NCBI GenBank assembly: GCA_004297735.1
Contig: SCTI01000002.1
Location: forward strand, 160 to 64,159
DNA from: Patescibacteria group bacterium
GTDB lineage: Bacteria; Patescibacteriota; Saccharimonadia; UBA4664; SCTI01
Reading direction: 5' to 3'
Length of the DNA stretch: 64,000 nucleotides
The position numbers and the translations under genes were made by a program. The notes below the pieces were generated by a model. That model had not been told where the DNA came from and ran no database searches. It saw nothing but the letters and a program-made list of their open reading frames with translations. Positions 4,827-53,268 of this stretch are shown one piece after another. Each line of letters begins with the position of its first letter. Within the stretch, counting starts at the first letter, position 1.

Positions 4827-5213
4827 TTAAGCGGACGAGGTATTAAGCGCTACCATCACCTTTTTTACCACCTCATCCGGGGTATGGTGCGACTTAATTA
4901 GATAGTCGGTTACGCCCAGGGCTCGCGCCAGCTCTTGGTTCATGTCAACTTGAGCCTCACCAAGGTTGGTCAGCAAAATTACCGGTACGTTGCGCAATCC
5001 CGGCTTCTTTTTTATCTCTTTTAAAACGTGGAAGCCGTTCATTTTTGGCATCAAAATATCCAGTAAGATGATGTCGGGGGTGTAACCCTCTAATAAATTC
5101 AAGCACTCTTCGCCATTGGTAGCCACCACCACCTCATGACCCTCCATATCAAACTTGGCCTCATACATTTCAACCAGTACGCGATCATCTTCTGCCAACA
5201 TTATCTTTGCCAT
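4827..5213 (-). CDS. Single-domain response regulator (receiver only)
   Basis: MAKIMLAEDD...DIILLDILMPKMNG matches the CheY-like acidic pocket. GGAGG lies 7 nt upstream of the ATG at 5213. Confidence 0.85.
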   Translation of the reverse strand: MAKIMLAEDDRVLVEMYEAKFDMEGHEVVVATNGEECLNLLEGYTPDIILLDILMPKMNGFHVLKEIKKKPGLRNVPVILLTNLGEAQVDMNQELARALGVTDYLIKSHHTPDEVVKKVMVALNTSSA

Positions 5214-5263: not shown

Positions 5264-7666
5264 CTACTGCAGCAGCGGAAGCTGCTTAGCAATTGGCAAG
5301 GTAAAGCTAAACCGACTGCCCTTGCCCTCACGGCTGCTAACCCAAATTTTACCACCATGTGATTCAACCAAATTCTTAACAATATAGAGTCCCAAGCCGG
5401 TACCGCCAGCCTGAACGCTCATTGGGTTGTAAATCCGGCCGAACTTCTGGAACAGACGCTCTAGGTGAGCCGGAGTGATGCCGACCCCTTCGTCTTTAAC
5501 GCTTATAACCAGCTCATTACCTTGAGCCTTAAAGTCGATTGAAACCTCGCTCTTAGGTAGAGAGTACTTAATGGCATTATCGACCAAGTTAACCAAAATC
5601 TGCCGCAACCTCACCTCGTCAGCCAACACCAGCGGCAGCTTGTGCTTGCGATTAATCTTTAGCATGATCTGGCGCTCAAATCCTTTGCTCGCCAGTTCGG
5701 CCACTACATCATTAATGAGCGGTTCAACCGCGGTTGGGGCAATTTTGAGCTTGATCTTGCCGCTTTCAATATAGCTAGCGTCCAGCAGATCTTCTACCAA
5801 ATGAATCATACGCTGGTTGGTCTGGTAGACCCTTTCCATAAAGTACAGTTGACGATCGGTTAATGGACCAAAATCCTTTTGCACCAACATACTCAAAAAC
5901 CCTTTAATCGCGGTTAATGGCGTGCGGAGTTCATGCGACACAATTGAGATAAAGTCGCTCTTAACCGCCTCTACCTCTTGCTCACGTTGAATGTTGCTAA
6001 TAATTACGATGCCGCTGGTCACGTTACCGCTGTCGTCAAAGATTGGCGAGCAGCTAATTTCGGTCCACAAAGCCTGGCCGTTCTTGGTCTCAATCAACTG
6101 CTGCCGCTTGGTAACAACCTCGCCTTCCTGTAGTACCTTCCGCAACGGTGTCAGCATCGCCATACTGGTACCTTCGGGAGTCATCGCCTTAACCACATCG
6201 TGGAACGACCGCCCAATCGCCTCCTGCATGGTAAAGCCGGTTAGCTTACTGGCGGCCGGGTTAAAACCAACCACCTTGGTATCACGGTCAAAGATCAGGA
6301 TCCCCTCTTCGGTAAAGGTAAACACCGCCTCCCATCGTTCACGGCGAGCGTTAACCTCGTTGTACAGCTCCCAGTTTTCAATGATCACCGCTAGCCGTGA
6401 GGCAACCAGTCGTAGCAGCTTGGCCTCGTGCGTGTTATAGGCCGAGTCTCGGTGGCTGACCTTGATCACGCCCAGGGCTTTAGAGTGGTAAGTGATCGGC
6501 ACGGTTAGCATGTGGCTTTTGGATATCGCCCCATCATCAATCTCTGGATTATAGGTTTGAGGTTTACGTCGCAAAAACGCCTCCACCACCGGATGATACG
6601 CCCCTAAATGCCACTGGCCGGCATGTTCATGAAAGTGCGTGCTGGTCGCCACCCGCTTAAGCAGCTGCGAATCGGGCTGATACAAGTAAATGCTGACGTT
6701 GGGCGACTCCAGCAGCTGGCTGATCATGGTTAAGTACTTTTTATAGATTTGATCAAAACGGAAACCAACAAAACCACTCAGTTCCGCCAGACTGGATAGC
6801 TCGCGTGAGTGCTTGTTAGCTAAGCGAGCCATCTTGTTGGTCTCAATCGTCTTTTCGACCAACGTGGTGACGTCTCTAGTGGTGATAATGGCGCCCTCGT
6901 ACCGATCGCCGCGAATTAACGGGCTAGCAACCAACTGTAAGTGCTGAATCTTCGACCCAAGATCGGCCTCGGCGTAAAAAGTGGTCTCCCGCCGCTGCTT
7001 AACCAGACCTAAAACCTTATTAATATCGGTATCAAAGCTCAAAAAGCTGGTTACTTCGGGTTGAGCCAAGGCCTCGGTGATTGGCTTGGCCGGCAGCACC
7101 TGGTTAATAATCTCGAACCGCGAACTAACCGTCGTGACCACATCATCGGCGTCAAGAATAATCATGCCAATACTGTGGTTTTGTTGAATCGCGCGCAGCT
7201 TTTCTTGCTCAGCGTACAGGTGGGTTTGGTCGCGAAGGTTGATAAGGACGCCCATAATGCCATCGTTAATGTCCCGATACGGACCCAGCACCGCCTCAAT
7301 TGAGGTGGAGCGATCATCGCAGGAGATTGACATGACCAAGCGCGATTCCTGGCCGGACAGAGCACGCTTAAGAGCTCCATCGGCGTTGTCGTAAGTCAGT
7401 GGCGTTTCGTCTGGGCTGCCGTTGGGCGACTCCACCAACCCCAGAAAGGTGCGGCCGTTAATCTGCTCTTCAGGCAAGCCAAGCAGACGTGCTGCGGCTG
7501 GATTACTGTAGGTGATTACCCCGTCTTGATCTAAACAAAGCAAGCCGTCACGCATACTCTCGCGCATTCGGTCCAACTCGTTTTTAACCTTGGCAGTGGC
7601 GACTTTGGCTGGTGCCGCCACAACCGGCTGCTGGTAGAAATTTGTGGTTCGCCGCGCCATCATCAC
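5264..7666 (-). CDS. Cytoplasmic multi-PAS/GAF sensor histidine kinase
   Basis: 800 aa with H-box SHELRTPL, N-box [10 protein letters not shown] and G-box GGTGLGL. No obvious TM segments. Confidence 0.88.
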
Positions 7667-39285: not shown

Positions 39286-39413
39286 AAATTGTCTCCTTAG
39301 TCTTTGCTTCAGGCGACCGCTGAGTTTTAGGTTCGGCGGAGGATTGATGCCTGAGCTGTAACGTTAATCAATGCAACTTGGTTAGAATACCAGATTTGAG
39401 AGGTTTGGGCAAG

Positions 39414-39989
39414 CTATTGAGCCGGCCGCACCCACATTCGTTCAACCCAACCATTTCTGGGTTCTTCAAACGTATCATCGGTTGAATTAAATCCAAGCTT
39501 TTTGAGGATTTTTACGCTTGGAGCATTACTATCTTCACAAAATGCCACGAACTCTGTTATCTCCATACTAGTCTGAGCCATCTGCATTAAGGCTTGAATT
39601 GAAGCGGTAACGAGGCCCCTGCCCCTCATCGAAGGGTCGAGAAAATAACCAAAACCGATCACGGTTGGGTTGGGCGTTCCGGACATGTAGCCATTGTCCT
39701 GCCATAAGTTGACCCAACCCACCATATTATCTTGCTGCACAAGGGTGTAGCGAAGGATATCAGGCTTACTTTGGCCTCTCCTAATCTCATTGACCACATC
39801 TGCCTCGTTGAGCATTTTGGAGGCCACAGTGACACGGTCGCGTATGCTCGGATCAGCCTCGAGTATTTCAATAGTCCTTTTAGCATCAGATTCCTGTACT
39901 AACCTCAGGTAGACATCATCTTGCACTTGGACTTTTTGTAGTGCCGGAATTTGGTGTAAGTCTCTTGCAATATTTTTTGGCTTTGTCAT
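39414..39989 (-). CDS. GNAT family N-acetyltransferase (RimJ/RimL-like)
   Basis: 191 aa. RGRGLVTASIQALM matches the acetyl-CoA binding motif A. Confidence 0.75.
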   Translation of the reverse strand: MTKPKNIARDLHQIPALQKVQVQDDVYLRLVQESDAKRTIEILEADPSIRDRVTVASKMLNEADVVNEIRRGQSKPDILRYTLVQQDNMVGWVNLWQDNGYMSGTPNPTVIGFGYFLDPSMRGRGLVTASIQALMQMAQTSMEITEFVAFCEDSNAPSVKILKKLGFNSTDDTFEEPRNGWVERMWVRPAQ

Positions 39990-40054
39990 ACCAAAACTAT
40001 ACTATAAATTTTTGAGATCAGAATTCGTTAATATTAGTTGTTTACGATAAATAG

Positions 40055-40152
40055 GCCTGGTGGATACGGTCTCACGACGAGGGGCCGAGCTGGTGCTATA
40101 CTTTGGCTTCGTCACCCGCTGTATTGGGGTTCGATTCCCCATAGCTCCACCA
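40055..40152 (+). ncRNA. tRNA/tmRNA-like small RNA, copy A (non-canonical; encodes CCA)
   Basis: 5' GGGGCCG (40081-40087) faces 3' TAGCTCC-A-CCA (40142-40152) with a G3:U70-type pair. T-arm TGGGG-TTCGATT-CCCCA lies at 40125-40141. A central 7-bp helix (40089-40095 with 40113-40119) carries a 17-nt loop. There is no D-arm and no 7-nt anticodon loop. Leader CCTGGTGGA (40056-40064) is perfectly complementary to TCCACCAGG (40146-40154). A possible -10, ATAAAT, lies at 40047-40052. Confidence 0.5.
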
Positions 40153-40163
40153 GGTTAATAAAC

Positions 40164-40192
40164 AAAAATAGCCGCCCGGAGCGGCTATTTTT
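40164..40192 (+). terminator. Intrinsic terminator 12 nt after RNA A
   Basis: AAAAATAGCCGC-ccgga-GCGGCTATTTTT. Confidence 0.75.
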
Positions 40193-40216
40193 GTAGTCAG
40201 TGTTGTCGGGCCAGTG

Positions 40217-40231
40217 CCACAGCTCCACCAG
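40217..40231 (+). repeat. Displaced copy of the 3' end of RNA A
   Basis: CCACAGCTCCACCAG compared with CCATAGCTCCACCAG at 40139-40153 matches at 14 of 15 positions. This is the pattern left by integration into the 3' end of tRNA/tmRNA genes. Confidence 0.6.
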
Positions 40232-40279
40232 ATACATTCGATACCTTTGTATCGATTTGATTGTAGCGCATTCTACTCC

Positions 40280-40308
40280 TTGACGCCATCCCCTTTTTCA
40301 GGTAAGAT
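40280..40308 (+). promoter_or_regulatory. rpmE promoter giving a near-leaderless mRNA
   Basis: TTGACG (40280-40285), 17 nt, TAAGAT (40303-40308). Only 9 nt separate the -10 from the ATG at 40318, and there is no SD. Confidence 0.5.
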
Positions 40309-40317
40309 GGTCGAGTT

Positions 40318-40713
40318 ATGAAAACCGATATTCATCCGACATTATTCGACACCAAGGTGCACTGCAACGGTTGTGATACCAACTTCACTACTCGCGCCAC
40401 GGTGCCAGAGATCACAGTTGAGATTTGTTCGAACTGTCATCCGTTCTACACCGGCAAGCAAAAGCTGGTGGATACCGCTGGTCGCGTTGAGAAGTTTGAG
40501 GCTCGCCGTAAGGCCGCCGAGGCCAAGAAGGCCGCTAGCTTAAAGGCAGCCGATGTTAAGGCTGAGCGTGAGGCCAAAAAGGCTCAAAAGAACGACCCTG
40601 AGCTTAAGGAAATTGCCGAGGAGCTCAAGGATCAGACCATTGATGAGCCAGCCGAGGTTGATGCTCCGGCTCCAGAAGCTGAGACCGAAAAGACCGATTC
40701 AACCGAATCTTAA
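40318..40713 (+). CDS. rpmE: 50S ribosomal protein L31 (zinc type) with a roughly 60-aa Lys/Glu/Ala-rich C-terminal extension
   Basis: MKTDIHP...CNGCDT...[13 protein letters not shown] is the L31 core. It is followed by [28 protein letters not shown]...[12 protein letters not shown]. Confidence 0.9.
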
Positions 40714-51109: not shown

Positions 51110-52222
51110 CTACGACCCAAACTGAATCTTTTTACGCCTAATCGCGATCGATTCCAGAAGGCCGACTGCGATTAGCGACACCAACAAGCTGGTGCCTCCG
51201 TAGCTGATAAATGGCAGTGGAATACCGGTCACCGGCATCAGCCCAATATTCATACCAATATTAATAAACAGGTGGAACAGCAGCATGGTGACCACGCCGA
51301 CCGCTACAAACACCCCAAAACGATCTTCGGCTCTTGAAGCAATGTAGATCCCGCGTAGCAACAGTACGGTAAATAGCAGTAGCACGATCAGGCCGCCAAT
51401 AAATCCCATTTTTTCGCTTAACACCGCAAAAATAAAATCGGTGTGTTGTGATGGTAAAAAGTTAAGTTGCGACTGACTACCGGCGGCCAACCCGCGCCCG
51501 TACAGCTGCCCACTACCCACCGCGATCGTAGACTGAACCACGTTGTAGCCGGTGCTAAGCGGGTCGGCGGTTGGGTTTAAGAACACCTCTAGACGGGCGC
51601 GCTGGTACGGTTTAAGCACAAACTGGATAAAGATTGGCAGGCTTACCACGGCGGCACCAAACAGCGCCGCAAAGTAGGTCCAGCGCACCTGGGCCATTAT
51701 CGCCATTACCAGCCAAATAGCACCAAACACTAGGGCCGTTCCTAGGTCTGGCTGAGCCAACACCAGCAGGCCAGGGACCGCCACATACAGTAACGAGATC
51801 GCCACCGGGCGAATTCGATCCATTGAGTCATAGTTGGCACTAAAGTACTTAGCCAACACCAAGATCATCACAATCTTAGCGAACTCCGATGGCTGAAACT
51901 GGAAAAAGCCAAGATCAATCCACCTGGTAGCACCCAGGGCAGTCTTGCCCAATACAAAAACCGCCAACAAGCTGACCAACATCGCCACATACAAAACCGG
52001 GGTAACCTTGCTCCAGCCACGGTAGTCCATGCGCGCCGCAAGCCCGAACCCAACCAACGCAATAACTAAAAAATAAACTTGGTGAGCAGCGTCCACCGGC
52101 GCAACCAAGTTAGCCGCCTTAAACGAGGTTGAGTAGATTACCACCACCCCCACAAGAGACAGTGCAAGCGCTGCGCCAAACAGCACCCAATCAAAGTTTT
52201 TCCAGAACCGCGACTTAAACAT
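51110..52222 (-). CDS. SEDS-family peptidoglycan glycosyltransferase (RodA/FtsW)
   Basis: 370 aa with about 10 TM segments, QPSEFAKI and LPFISYGGTS motifs. Confidence 0.88.
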   Translation of the reverse strand: MFKSRFWKNFDWVLFGAALALSLVGVVVIYSTSFKAANLVAPVDAAHQVYFLVIALVGFGLAARMDYRGWSKVTPVLYVAMLVSLLAVFVLGKTALGATRWIDLGFFQFQPSEFAKIVMILVLAKYFSANYDSMDRIRPVAISLLYVAVPGLLVLAQPDLGTALVFGAIWLVMAIMAQVRWTYFAALFGAAVVSLPIFIQFVLKPYQRARLEVFLNPTADPLSTGYNVVQSTIAVGSGQLYGRGLAAGSQSQLNFLPSQHTDFIFAVLSEKMGFIGGLIVLLLFTVLLLRGIYIASRAEDRFGVFVAVGVVTMLLFHLFINIGMNIGLMPVTGIPLPFISYGGTSLLVSLIAVGLLESIAIRRKKIQFGS

Positions 52223-52269
52223 TAAGTTCTATTATACGCGGTAAGCCGGGTCAACAAAATCTACCAAGA

Positions 52270-52289
52270 CCCTGGTGGAACTGTTGGGG
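52270..52289 (-). repeat. Degenerate copy of the tRNA-like 3' end (candidate att remnant)
   Basis: The minus strand reads CCCCAACAGTTCCACCAGGG. Compare CCCCATAGCTCCACCAGG (RNA A) and CCCCACAGCTCCA (RNA B). Read on the plus strand, it equally resembles the RNA A leader CCTGGTGGA...GGGGC. Confidence 0.5.
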
Positions 52290-52383
52290 CGCCTCTCTAA
52301 CCCAGATTCTGGCAGATAGCAGTTTTACACGCTATTTGCAGGGTGGGCATTTGACTATCGGATGGCGCTTTGCGCATGCTGAA

Positions 52384-52403
52384 GACCCACCGATCGGTGG
52401 GTC
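52384..52403. repeat. Perfect 20-nt palindrome upstream of the 61-aa gene
   Basis: GACCCACCGATCGGTGGGTC. A second hairpin, GCGGGG (52427-52432) with CCCCGC (52446-52451), abuts the RBS. Confidence 0.85.
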
Positions 52404-52467
52404 CCGAGGTCCACTGGCAAGGGGACGCGGGGCAACGTACTACAACCCCGCAAAGGAGGTGGAGTAC

Positions 52468-52653
52468 ATGGGAAAGCCAAAGTTCGACACCCAGTCGAAC
52501 AACTCGAATGCGTGGGTCGGTGTCCGCGAAGGTCAGGACAGATCATCCGGCAAGACGCATACCGAGATCATCGTGCATGACAAGAGCAACAACGATCACG
52601 CTCACGTCGGCATCGATAAGAGCGGCAATCAGATATATCGCCGTGATCGCTAA
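52468..52653 (+). CDS. GC-rich small hydrophilic protein, 61 aa
   Basis: AAAGGAGG RBS with ATG at 52468. MGKPKFDTQSNNSNAWVGVREGQDRSSGKTHTEIIVHDKSNNDHAHVGIDKSGNQIYRRDR. Third codon positions are mostly G/C. Confidence 0.55.
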   Translation: MGKPKFDTQSNNSNAWVGVREGQDRSSGKTHTEIIVHDKSNNDHAHVGIDKSGNQIYRRDR

Positions 52654-52662
52654 ATAGCGACA

Positions 52663-52683
52663 CCGAGGCCCTTCCGGCCTCGG
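52663..52683. terminator. GC hairpin between convergent islet genes
   Basis: CCGAGGCC-cttcc-GGCCTCGG, an 8-bp stem. Confidence 0.55.
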
Positions 52684-52699
52684 GCCGGGAGGGCCTCAT

Positions 52700-53026
52700 C
52701 TATACGCGGCGCGTCAGGCCATCCTCGCGAGCTACTCCCTCACCGAACGCCGATGCAATCGCGCTGTAGCGCGCGAGGAGCACCAGAGCGTTCGCAATCT
52801 CGCCATGCTCAGCCGGTACGAGAAACTCTCGCATCCACGCTGAGTTCGGAGTCGCAGCCATTATGTCCGCGAGCACAGCAGCCTCTTCGGGATCTGCTGC
52901 CGCCCAACGATCACGAATCAGCTTCGAAGCTTGATCGATCGATCGGTCATCGAAGTCGTCCTCGTCGAAGCGACGGCGCATTTCATCGCGCAGCTCGACC
53001 AAGTCTTGTAATTCACTGTTACCCAT
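52700..53026 (-). CDS. GC-rich acidic helical protein, 108 aa, unknown function
   Basis: ORF MGNSELQDLVELRDEMRRRFDEDDFDDRSIDQASKLIRDRW... is divergent from the recombinase gene. Confidence 0.55.
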   Translation of the reverse strand: MGNSELQDLVELRDEMRRRFDEDDFDDRSIDQASKLIRDRWAAADPEEAAVLADIMAATPNSAWMREFLVPAEHGEIANALVLLARYSAIASAFGEGVAREDGLTRRV

Positions 53027-53268
53027 GGCTTTATTGTCGAACAGGCCAGCGACTCATGCAAGCACGAGCGTGTCCAATCGCCCGTCCGATCGCGTCAGAG
53101 TGCTCGCTCCTGAACTTCCCGCATTCAGGCGCTTTCCGCTCGATTAAGGCCTAGGACTATCTAGGGCCCTTTGCCCTCCCTTACTACAAACGCCTCCAGA
53201 TCTGGCAAAATACGTATTGGCTTAACTACTGATACGAGCTAAGATCCTTAACGAAAGGAGGTGCACAT

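Follow-up and report, generated by a model that had tools for sequence, protein, structure and literature searches.

Two tRNA-shaped, probably non-decoding RNA genes in a Saccharimonadales chromosome: conserved structure, a co-varying loop and mobile DNA at the 3' ends

Alanine-identity mimics of transfer RNA (tRNA) are known mainly as the tRNA-like domain of transfer-messenger RNA (tmRNA), and free-standing forms are rare. Genes for tRNA and tmRNA also serve as integration sites for genomic islands and prophages, for which a tyrosine integrase is the usual enzyme. Forms of tmRNA of about 65 nt that have no coding sequence (CDS-less forms) are documented in mycobacteriophage DS6A, in jakobid mitochondria and in some plastids (PMC4131195, PMC11915505), a molecule made of the tRNA-like domain only inhibited tmRNA upon its expression in Escherichia coli (PMC11915505, PMC4131195), and tmRNA has been described as an integration site (PMC11915505). 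The present work concerns two tRNA-shaped RNA genes, RNA A and RNA B, in a stretch of 64,000 nucleotides from a Patescibacteria group bacterium (contig SCTI01000002.1 of assembly GCA_004297735.1, positions 160 to 64,159), which we call the window and which is a core chromosomal region of Patescibacteria/Saccharimonadales. We lean towards the view that these genes represent a Saccharimonadales-specific family of non-decoding, probably alanine-accepting tRNA mimics of about 70 nt under RNA-pairing control; a description of this tRNA-shaped RNA family we could not find. Below we report the anatomy and conservation of the two genes, the covariation of their helices, the co-variation of a loop with its upstream copy, and the junctions of a DNA insertion.

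The 24-nt block of T-arm and acceptor strand, GGGGTTCGAWTCCCCAYAGCTCCA, occurs in exactly two copies in the 64 kb (40126-40149 on the plus strand and 54950-54973 on the minus strand), where none would be expected by chance. RNA A and RNA B have in common the 5' start GGGGCYGAGYTGGT, of the general form GGGGC[C/T]GAG[C/T]TGGT, as well as the G3:U70 pair, A73 and, when aligned, upstream regions that resemble each other, with a leader GCCT(T)GGTGG. Without a mismatch, the RNA A leader CCTGGTGGA (40056-40064) can pair with TCCACCAGG (40146-40154). The parts of both genes are the following.

40081-40152, plus strand: RNA A, a tRNA-shaped RNA gene of about 70 nt, recognised by its sequence and by a match to R1, a model made from RNA B orthologs only.
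40081-40087 and 40142-40148, plus strand: 5' and 3' strands of the RNA A acceptor stem, with A73 at 40149 and CCA at 40150-40152.
40088-40097 and 40125-40141, plus strand: stem-less D-loop and T-arm of RNA A.
40098-40101 with 40121-40124, plus strand: base of the RNA A central hairpin, with its loop at 40102-40120.
40043-40048, plus strand: candidate -10 box TACGAT of RNA A, with a predicted start at G40055; a TAAAT is at 40048-40052.
40054-40064, plus strand: 5' leader strand of RNA A, GGCCTGGTGGA, which pairs with 40146-40156.
40162-40199, plus strand: intrinsic terminator of RNA A, a perfect 14-bp inverted repeat (40162-40175 with 40181-40194) and then a T run.
54950-55016, minus strand: RNA B, with G1 at 55016; z = -2.86 for a fold into acceptor stem, one hairpin and T-arm.
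55016-55010 and 54957-54951, minus strand: 5' and 3' strands of the RNA B acceptor stem, with A73 at 54950.
55009-55001 and 54974-54958, minus strand: D-loop and T-arm of RNA B.
55000-54997 with 54978-54975, minus strand: base of the RNA B central hairpin, with its loop at 54996-54979.
55035-55044, minus strand: 5' leader strand of RNA B, GCCTTGGTGG, whose pairing partner is displaced to 52275-52266.

All parts of the tRNA elbow are present in six sequences out of six: the acceptor stem has 7 bp, the T-stem has 5 bp and a UUCGAWU loop, and the D-loop contains UGG. From the acceptor 5' strand to the T-arm the distance is 33-35 nt in RNA A and RNA B, and in this interior neither the tag reading frame of an mRNA-like domain nor pseudoknots, the standard parts of tmRNA, were found. 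The acceptor stem of RNA A is imperfect (a C6.A67 mismatch and G7.U66), and that of its ortholog in contig L217 is perfect. CCA is encoded in RNA A and in all intact orthologs; the RNA B of the window is without it only because of the insertion of an element, which is described below. A hexamer nAnnAT stands 6 nt 5' of the first G of the leader in every ortholog of A and B, as judged by eye on the alignments, and the candidate -10 box of RNA A was absent from the listing of the promoter scan. The terminator stem of RNA A is kept in L217, where most differences fall in its loop or adjoin it.

Standard tools call nothing at these positions: ARAGORN reported no tRNA or tmRNA gene in the 64-kb window or in the ortholog loci, and Rfam at gathering scores gave no match in the window. 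At relaxed thresholds RNA B reached 27.3 bits with the tRNA family (RF00005; cut-off 29), the D-stem being deleted in the alignment, its top-scoring family was mascRNA (28.6 bits, cut-off 42.5), and the tmRNA family did not match it; RNA A gave weak partial matches only, none of them to tRNA, and 12.8 bits for tmRNA in a truncated match. A preliminary description, made from the letters of the window, had presented the two as related tRNA/tmRNA-like genes that are neither canonical tRNA nor full tmRNA, and with this we agree, given the aligned upstream regions and leaders and the leader:trailer helix common to both. Its 5' ends, leaders, TAAAT boxes, T-arm block, G3:U70 and A73 are all in the sequence as it gave them; the RNA A leader does pair perfectly with the 3' segment containing CCA, in a helix that covaries in the orthologs too; no standard cloverleaf was obtained, as it had stated, since neither ARAGORN nor the Rfam runs fold either RNA as an ordinary tRNA; and its remark that a full tmRNA would have no room between the GNAT gene and rpmE is right, the same being true between ileS and ftsW. 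We had to part from it in several details. The 7-bp helix with a 17-nt loop that it drew for RNA A is not kept in L217, and a 4-bp helix AUAC:GUAU is supported instead. Dedicated terminators, which it assigned to both genes, are real for RNA A (the 14-bp inverted repeat), and the one assigned to RNA B, at 54933-54901, belongs to the inserted element. The likeness to YrlA or Y-RNA that it suggested found no support: no YrlA or Y-RNA family was among the Rfam matches listed to E 10 for RNA A or RNA B, no Ro60 was met in about 50 scanned open reading frames (ORFs), and the topology differs. Its comparison with an isolated tRNA-like domain of tmRNA proved to be the best architectural match, without membership of tmRNA, as scores stay below 47 bits and the tandem G.A motif is replaced by Watson-Crick pairs.

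An argument for a structure under selection is found in the base pairs themselves. Covariation was assessed on 6 sequences from 5 lineages, with the RNA B precursor of the window rebuilt from its two junctions for the comparison of six precursors. All 16 core pairs form in each of the four RNA B orthologs, where the base of the central hairpin has three of its four pairs changed on both sides (AGCA:UGCU, GACA:UGUU, GGCG:CGCU, GGUG:CAUU) and one T-stem pair has changed from U:A to C:G; at the RNA A central base, AUAC:GUAU of the window is replaced by GUGU:AUGC in L217. Over the six precursors the 8-bp helix that joins the leader to the A73-CCA-trailer is 97.9% paired, with four of its eight pairs changed on both sides (partners are, for instance, GCCTTGGTGG/CCACCAAGGC, GCAATGGTGG/CCACCATTGC and GCACTTGGTG/CACCAAGTGC); no shuffle reached its covariation score, and registers slid along the same strands are 43-55% paired. 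No variation occurs in G3:U70, A73, the GG of the D-loop or the T-loop, divergence is seen in the central loop and in the flanks, and the neighbouring intergenic DNA is about 70% identical. We conclude from this comparison that the structure is under selection and is not debris. The hairpin GUUGGUCU:GGACCGAU of the minimum-free-energy fold of RNA B was also considered and was set aside, for it is not kept in the orthologs.

A further relation, which concerns the central loop, distinguishes the RNA B lineage. The loop segment recurs upstream on the same strand, and a divergent transcript is predicted to start beside this copy, as listed here.

55123-55140, minus strand: segment U, AGGACCGATAATCCTCGT, the same-strand upstream copy of the RNA B loop segment 54995-54978.
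55087-55181, plus strand: predicted unit of the anti-U RNA, about 55 nt, with a predicted start near 55121 and its end at the bidirectional ileS terminator (stem 55143-55175).
55087-55114, plus strand: predicted anti-U promoter, with -35 TTGACA at 55087-55092, a 16-nt spacer with TG, and -10 TAATCT at 55109-55114.
39976-39988, plus strand: weak and uncertain upstream copy of the RNA A loop, TTTGGCTTTGTCA as compared with TTTGGCTTCGTCA in the loop (40102-40114), antisense of the region of the GNAT start codon.

The RNA B loop sequence AGGACCGATAATCTTCGT (54995-54978) is found again at 55140-55123, just after the ileS terminator, which makes two matches in 64 kb against 0.05 expected. In all four RNA B-bearing genomes the loop (15-20 nt) co-varies with a copy located about 120 nt 5' of it, and the sequence differs by genome: loop and copy are both GACTAACACTCTTCGTGT in L210, both GACTAACAATCTTCG in L215, and ATTCACAACC[C/T]TAGC in L214. 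The lineage holds two differences between U and loop (in the window and in L214), and both would give G.U pairs in a duplex. Among 178 related RNAs only those of Saccharimonadales possess an upstream loop copy, and in the distant and viral groups none stood above the cross-controls. Between the copy and RNA B, on the opposite strand, there is a promoter consensus TTGACN, a 16-nt spacer including TG, and TAYTAT; it is represented by TTGACC-16-TATTAT in L210 and TTGACG-16-TACTAT in L215, both preceded by TG and each being the sole promoter-like site there. The first 22 nt or so of the predicted anti-U RNA are complementary to the RNA B loop. Cognate duplexes of loop and antisense have -30 to -36 kcal/mol, which none of 300 shuffles reach (for the window the value is -35.8 kcal/mol, also with 0 of 300), and in the cross matrix they are strongest on the diagonal. 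We read this identity of U and loop as selection for RNA-RNA pairing. A toxic-peptide reading frame was looked for, and no start codon was seen in the predicted antisense RNA of about 55 nt.

The loop of RNA A has a match of 12 out of 13 in its own upstream copy, with a score of 10.5 as compared to 7 for the best cross-control. That the loop would regulate the GNAT start codon in antisense we did not retain as more than a weak lead: the match does not exist in L217 and is unremarkable in a scan of 3 kb on each side. The A and B modules align, by eye, across the divergent promoter region, and therefore this layout may be ancestral; the divergent antisense pair is met in the RNA B lineage only, with a promoter and a terminator that are predicted.

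How close are these RNAs to tmRNA? For intact orthologs tmRNA (RF00023) is the best Rfam family, with 34.2-41.5 bits (E 1e-10 to 1e-13) and a cut-off of 47, and the RNA A ortholog of L217 scores 37.5 bits with R1 and 34.2 bits with Rfam tmRNA. R1 finds the RNA A of the window at 36.4 bits (E = 3e-6). We rejected this match as a proof of a specific kinship of A and B, as generic viral RNAs made of the tRNA-like domain only score alike; because of this, the case for their paralogy is made by the upstream region, leader and helix which the two share, and not by the core. The G.A and A.G pairs of the motif UUCGAC...GGAC open helix P2a in the Rfam tmRNA consensus, and we take this motif to be part of the SmpB contact region. 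It is absent in RNA A and RNA B, where the covarying AGCA:UGCU, GACA:UGUU, GGCG:CGCU, GGUG:CAUU and AUAC:GUAU stand in its place; their 4-bp covarying helix is no more than 1 nt from the T-stem, and cmscan aligns it to P2a. Judged by sequence, RNA A and RNA B are therefore not members of CDS-less tmRNA: they share its layout, and fall short in the two features that define it, the score and the motif.

The same comparison brought up a number of related RNAs elsewhere. A curated tmRNA database holds 9 standard-form sequences without a coding region. A loose pattern that asked for a G3:U70 acceptor, a GG loop and a T-arm brought together more than 130 different RNAs, 60-83 nt long, from metagenome and viral contigs (L015-L202), many of them on viral contigs (examples are L024:2681-2762, L071:9624-9705 and L019:1292-1354). 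Those with UUCGA(C)...GAC pass the Rfam tmRNA cut-off in seven of nine tested cases, at 54-73 bits with the interior deleted, and from their sequence we assign these motif-bearing RNAs to CDS-less tmRNAs with the tRNA-like domain only. ARAGORN reported none of them as tmRNA; one it took, wrongly, for an odd tRNA. In many of them an internal loop (AAGNCC...GGAA) is conserved and a small hairpin forms the cap; one metagenome contig that bears such a gene also has a Pistol ribozyme match (L033:2198-2248, 39.1 bits, cut-off 34.5). In other phyla we met tRNA-like RNAs with 48-60 bits against the RNA B model (L005:5824-5892, L020:1156-1223, L027:4941-5010, L123:2950-3018), which are called neither tRNA nor tmRNA. 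A gene for an IS1595-family (ISXO2-like) DDE transposase is situated about 0.3-0.4 kb from the RNA in the first three and about 0.8 kb in L123; terminal inverted repeats joining these RNAs to the transposases were searched for and none were found. The RNA of L020 is within a tRNA array, and after that of L005 comes a suppressor tRNA (anticodon UUA). A strict pattern scan of genome contigs returned 13 matches, mostly ordinary tRNAs or chance, and in the literature nothing relevant was found on tRNA-like RNAs in Saccharibacteria or on IS1595-linked RNAs.

Both genes are patchy among relatives. An ortholog of RNA A is present in one contig, L217, with the same order of a GNAT homolog (68% identity), RNA A, terminator, 3' relic and rpmE; seven syntenic loci are without it, in which rpsB ... 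rpmE-prfA is kept and the cargo of the gap between rpsB and rpmE differs by lineage. This gap (39286-40317 in the window) is a hot spot of variable DNA in the clade: it is empty in L203 and L206, contains a 359-aa ORF in L204, ORFs of 401 and 226 aa in L205, two small ORFs in L208, and the GNAT gene with RNA A in the window and in L217. Orthologs of RNA B lie in a module of about 300 nt between ileS and ftsW (L210, L214, L215, L216), and three syntenic loci, L211-L213, have none. In L212 and L213 ftsW follows ileS directly; L211 keeps the upstream half of the module without the tRNA-like body and reads GCATTGGTGG / ATTTTAG (the slash marks the joint, here and below). Since the two genes are patchy in syntenic loci, they are lineage-specific, dispensable and sited in variable DNA, and they are conserved where present.

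The RF1 encoded here has 100% identity to a protein which NCBI names as one of Patescibacteria/Saccharimonadales, and the surroundings are of core type. They include mraZ/mraW, several aminoacyl-tRNA synthetases, secA, mreBC, rpsB-tsf-frr-uppS, rpmE-prfA-prmC, parAB, ftsW, ileS and ribonucleotide reductase; no smpB, Ro60 (TROVE), alaS or Fem-type gene was among the approximately 50 window ORFs scanned (five were left out). The GNAT next to RNA A has only weak similarities to RimL/RimJ, ArsN and AAC(6'), and two homologs in 5.8 billion proteins. It was considered as a toxin that acetylates aminoacyl-tRNA, and no toxin family matched. On the other side of RNA A, rpmE (40318-40713) encodes an L31 whose 131 aa include a long Ala-, Lys- and Glu-rich extension at the C-terminus; in relatives the protein has 118-138 aa.

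The 3' ends of both genes bear marks of mobile DNA, as follows.

52276-54949: mini-element of about 2.67 kb, with a large serine recombinase, two small ORFs without a family match, and its own terminator at 54933-54901.
53269-55002, plus strand: serine recombinase ORF with Resolvase, Recombinase and Zn_ribbon_recom domains and Ccr-like matches.
52245-52275, minus strand: displaced native CCA, trailer and terminator of RNA B, CCAGGGTCTTGGTAGATTTTGTTGAC, with a 3'-flank match in L214 and L215 (by eye).
40200-40255, plus strand: relic of a tRNA-like 3' half, with a decayed T-arm GGGCCAGTGCC, then CACAGCTCCACCAG (40217-40231) and a hairpin at 40238-40255.

The junctions of the element are CAGCTCCA / TGACAG, immediately after A73 of RNA B, and CAGTTCCA / CCAGGG. 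The 3' continuation of the intact orthologs is found 2.7 kb away as CAGTTCCA / CCAGGGTCTTGGTAGATTTTG, immediately upstream of the ftsW promoter, and the far end of the element mimics the RNA B 3' end (CCCCAACAGTTCCA and CCCCACAGCTCCA). From the two junctions attB can be rebuilt as CCCCACAGCTCCA / CCAGGGTCTTGG and attP as CCCCAACAGTTCCA / TGACAGCAG; relatives have ileS, RNA B and ftsW with no element between them. The recombinase ORF crosses the junction into RNA B, and its C-terminal tail would therefore differ between the integrated and the excised states. The terminator of the element is 13 nt inside the RNA B junction, and the region is richer in G+C (0.56-0.59 in 2-kb windows over 52001-56000, about 0.52 nearby). 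Relatives of the serine recombinase were searched for in viral contigs and none were found.

At RNA A the preliminary description had noted a second copy of the 3' end at 40217-40231, with 14 of 15 positions matching, and we find it exactly so; it looks like part of a relic that extends from a decayed T-arm to CCA. Its idea of an integration scar holds in principle, for the RNA B 3' end is occupied by an element and the copy beside RNA A is relic-like and kept in L217; for RNA A itself we would interpret the relic as an old integration scar, which is an inference from the sequence. Some other observations belong here. A block of about 65 nt (~40188-40254) which holds the relic has a single difference from L217 (C/A at 40244), and far more divergence is seen in RNA A itself and in GNAT, with divergence also at the wobble positions of rpmE. 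In L210 (7215-9995) a TatA gene and an 806-aa ORF without a family match stand between the RNA B 3' end and ftsW, on the side which in the window is occupied by the element. In L215 the ileS stop codon overlaps GCGTATAATAA (5096-5110), a sequence that occurs again at about 5385-5400, on the other side of the RNA B module, in the -10 region (CCGCGTATAATAG) of the ftsW promoter, and L212, which has no module, has a single copy of it; the flanking repeat may be a target-site duplication from the insertion of the module of about 300 nt.

Several facts weigh against a conserved and RNA-controlled tRNA mimic. RNA A is missing from the syntenic loci L203-L209, which represent four lineages with an RF1 (release factor 1) identity of 78-95%, and RNA B from the three loci mentioned above. 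The sample for covariation is small. The R1 scores of generic viral tRNA-like-domain-only RNAs, 36-42 bits, leave RNA A no higher than they are, the acceptor stem of RNA A in the window contains the C6.A67 mismatch, and the RNA B of the window has lost its CCA together with the partner of its leader. The antisense -10 box TAATCT fails the promoter scan in the window, the antisense relation of RNA A is weak (4 of 300 shuffles reach it) and is absent in the L217 ortholog (49 of 300), and the identity of U and loop could in principle come from a process at the DNA level.

It may be supposed that RNA A and RNA B are true CDS-less tmRNAs acting through SmpB, which would either donate alanine without a tag at stalled ribosomes or titrate SmpB and damp trans-translation. 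In favour of it are the same layout (acceptor stem with G3:U70, stem-less GG D-loop, a helix at the P2a position, T-arm, CCA), the rank of tmRNA as the best Rfam family for intact orthologs (34-41.5 bits), the equal R1 scores of viral tRNA-like-domain-only RNAs and RNA A, and the documented forms of about 65 nt with the inhibition of tmRNA by an expressed tRNA-like-domain-only molecule (PMC11915505, PMC4131195). However, all scores are under 47 while genuine viral RNAs of this kind have 54-73 bits, ordinary covarying pairs replace UUCGAC...GGAC where the viral forms keep the motif, and smpB was not among the roughly 50 window ORFs scanned (five left out), so we regard this explanation as improbable. 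We know of no tmRNA counterpart of the leader:trailer helix or of an antisense partner, which also counts against it. One could think as well of unusual decoding tRNAs, charged with alanine and reading Ile or Val codons (the loop of the window's RNA B contains CCGAUAA) or stop codons. RNA B does score 27.3 bits with tRNA, in an alignment with a 7-nt loop and GAU at the anticodon position, BLAST relates its D-loop and anticodon-arm region to phage tRNA-Ile and tRNA-Phe genes at about 78% identity, and some distant relatives reside in tRNA arrays, one of them beside a suppressor tRNA; but the anticodon-like stem is unpaired in L214 and L215, the loop differs among close relatives (GAU, AAC, CAC), position 33 in the window's RNA B is C and not U, alanine identity with Ile/Val anticodons would cause mistranslation, and what the loop follows is its upstream copy, not a codon. 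We give this possibility hardly any credence.

By a different explanation, the identity of U and loop and the inverted repeats of leader and trailer work at the DNA level and not by RNA pairing, as recombination cores or binding sites that site-specific movements of the module of about 300 bp (integration, excision or transposition) have left behind or make use of, and the tRNA-like body is mainly an attachment site. It would agree with a serine-recombinase element located exactly at the RNA B CCA, whose far end mimics the RNA B 3' end, with the RNA A 3' relic, the other DNA just 3' of RNA B in L210 and the variable regions in which both genes lie, with L211, which resembles an empty or deleted site (GCATTGGTGG / ATTTTAG), with the GCGTATAATA repeat flanking the L215 module, and with the IS1595-family transposases adjoining related RNAs in other phyla. 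Yet sites of recombinases are normally conserved in sequence, and here leader and trailer, and U and loop, differ between genomes and nevertheless keep their complementarity or identity, a pattern characteristic of base pairing; both U/loop differences of the RNA B lineage would give G.U pairs; the predicted 5' end of a unit with promoter and terminator is exactly where U lies; four of the five RNA B-type modules fetched are without a recombinase; and gene conversion of 15-20 nt with unrelated flanks is unlikely. Such an origin seems to us doubtful, to about the same degree as the tmRNA explanation. That the genes are decaying tRNA or tmRNA pseudogenes with attachment-site debris and without a function, an alternative which the preliminary description itself had allowed, would fit the silence of standard tools, the patchy presence among relatives, the deleted D-stem, the degenerate anticodon-like stem in L214 and L215, and the acceptor mismatch in the window's RNA A. 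Covariation in the orthologs argues against it: no change, or compensatory change only, is seen in acceptor stem, D-loop GG and T-arm next to intergenic DNA that is about 70% identical, CCA and terminators are retained and upstream regions conserved, and for loop and U to co-vary across four genomes a constraint must still be acting. We hold it to be quite improbable.

Returning to the non-decoding tRNA mimic under RNA-pairing control, we propose the following scheme. The top half of a tRNA or tmRNA is kept, with D-stem and anticodon arm replaced by one hairpin that has a fast-evolving loop of 18-20 nt. A promoter of its own is probable, and the first 8-10 nt of the precursor pair with the CCA and the 3' trailer. 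RNase P would cut at G1, the 3' end would be trimmed and alanyl-tRNA synthetase would charge the RNA with alanine; cleavage, trimming and alanylation are suggested because the elbow, the acceptor stem and G3:U70/A73/CCA are conserved. The product would have the layout of the tmRNA tRNA-like domain closed by a hairpin, and would be non-decoding. In the RNA B lineage the loop is kept complementary, over 15-20 bp, to the 5' end of the predicted divergent RNA of about 55 nt, and this antisense RNA would most likely mask the tRNA-like RNA, set off its breakdown or itself be titrated by it. The 3' CCA end attracts mobile DNA, as seen in the 2.7-kb element exactly after A73 of RNA B and the older relic at RNA A. 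Transcription, processing, alanylation, the direction of the regulation and the role in the cell we infer from these sequence features.

As a more tentative step, which we put forward as a possibility rather on the unlikely side, the RNA B module may be a two-RNA system not described before, made of an alanine-identity scaffold, a co-evolving loop and a dedicated antisense. The 5' leader would then compete with a terminator arm for the CCA-trailer, and maturation could be coupled to read-through into ftsW. If true, the engineered tRNA scaffold would have its equivalent in nature here, employed for specific RNA-RNA recognition, in regulation, addiction or immunity, within a small mobile module.

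Here an alanine-identity mimic occurs in free-standing form on the chromosome of one of the Saccharibacteria, ultra-small bacteria that depend on a host; purifying and compensatory selection on it is clear, and for two of its features, the covarying leader:CCA-trailer helix and the co-evolving antisense partner, we found no description. If expressed and charged, the RNAs would make a new class of non-decoding aminoacyl-RNA, whose role could be ribosome rescue, alanine donation, regulation or that of a selfish module. The locus also shows that integrative elements can have their attachment sites in tRNA-like genes of non-canonical form, which annotation tools miss, and this matters for the finding of genomic islands in genomes of the candidate phyla radiation (CPR).

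It is useful to set these genes beside the systems that they resemble. Type I toxin-antitoxin loci such as tisB/istR-1 and zor/orz consist of divergently transcribed, non-overlapping antisense RNA pairs. The RNA B module has similar back-to-back promoters, complementarity of 15-20 nt at one 5' end and a fast co-evolution of partners; unlike them, it has no toxin frame and one of its partners is tRNA-shaped, and in the RNA A module, where complementarity is weak, a RimL/RimJ-like GNAT is encoded on the divergent transcript. With the integration of islands and prophages at tRNA and tmRNA genes the locus shares a 3'-end insertion that spares the body up to A73, the mimicry of the displaced end and a partial 3' copy past RNA A, and it differs in the large serine recombinase, the 2.7-kb size of the element and the non-canonical tRNA-like target.

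YrlA and mascRNA are likewise non-decoding small RNAs with a tRNA-like elbow, a T-arm and paired 5' and 3' ends. In YrlA, however, the ends form a closing helix at the position of the anticodon stem, and in RNA A and RNA B it is the acceptor stem that the paired ends lengthen; mascRNA comes from eukaryotes, and RNA B is below its cut-off of 42.5. From tRNA-Ala and D-arm-less tRNAs, the latter known among some mitochondrial tRNAs, one recognises G3:U70 with A73, the T-loop UUCGAAU and the D-loop AGUUGGU, and positions of the D-stem 3' strand and the variable loop pair and lengthen the central helix; the D-loop and central arm of RNA B resemble tRNA-Ile and tRNA-Phe genes with positions 8-13 deleted. 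RNA A and RNA B are nevertheless without a D-stem, a conserved anticodon stem or an anticodon, and are below the tRNA cut-off. The nearest relatives in form are the CDS-less tmRNAs, with about 60-80 nt, a 7-bp acceptor stem, G3:U70, A73 and usually CCA, a stem-less GG D-loop and one P2a-position helix beside the T-arm, and with neither tag frame nor pseudoknots. From these RNA A and RNA B are set apart by scores below the cut-off (lower still for the window copies), by Watson-Crick pairs in place of the tandem G.A motif, by their chromosomal location in a Saccharibacteria lineage, by the covarying leader:trailer helix and, in the RNA B lineage, by a loop which appears to co-evolve with an antisense RNA.

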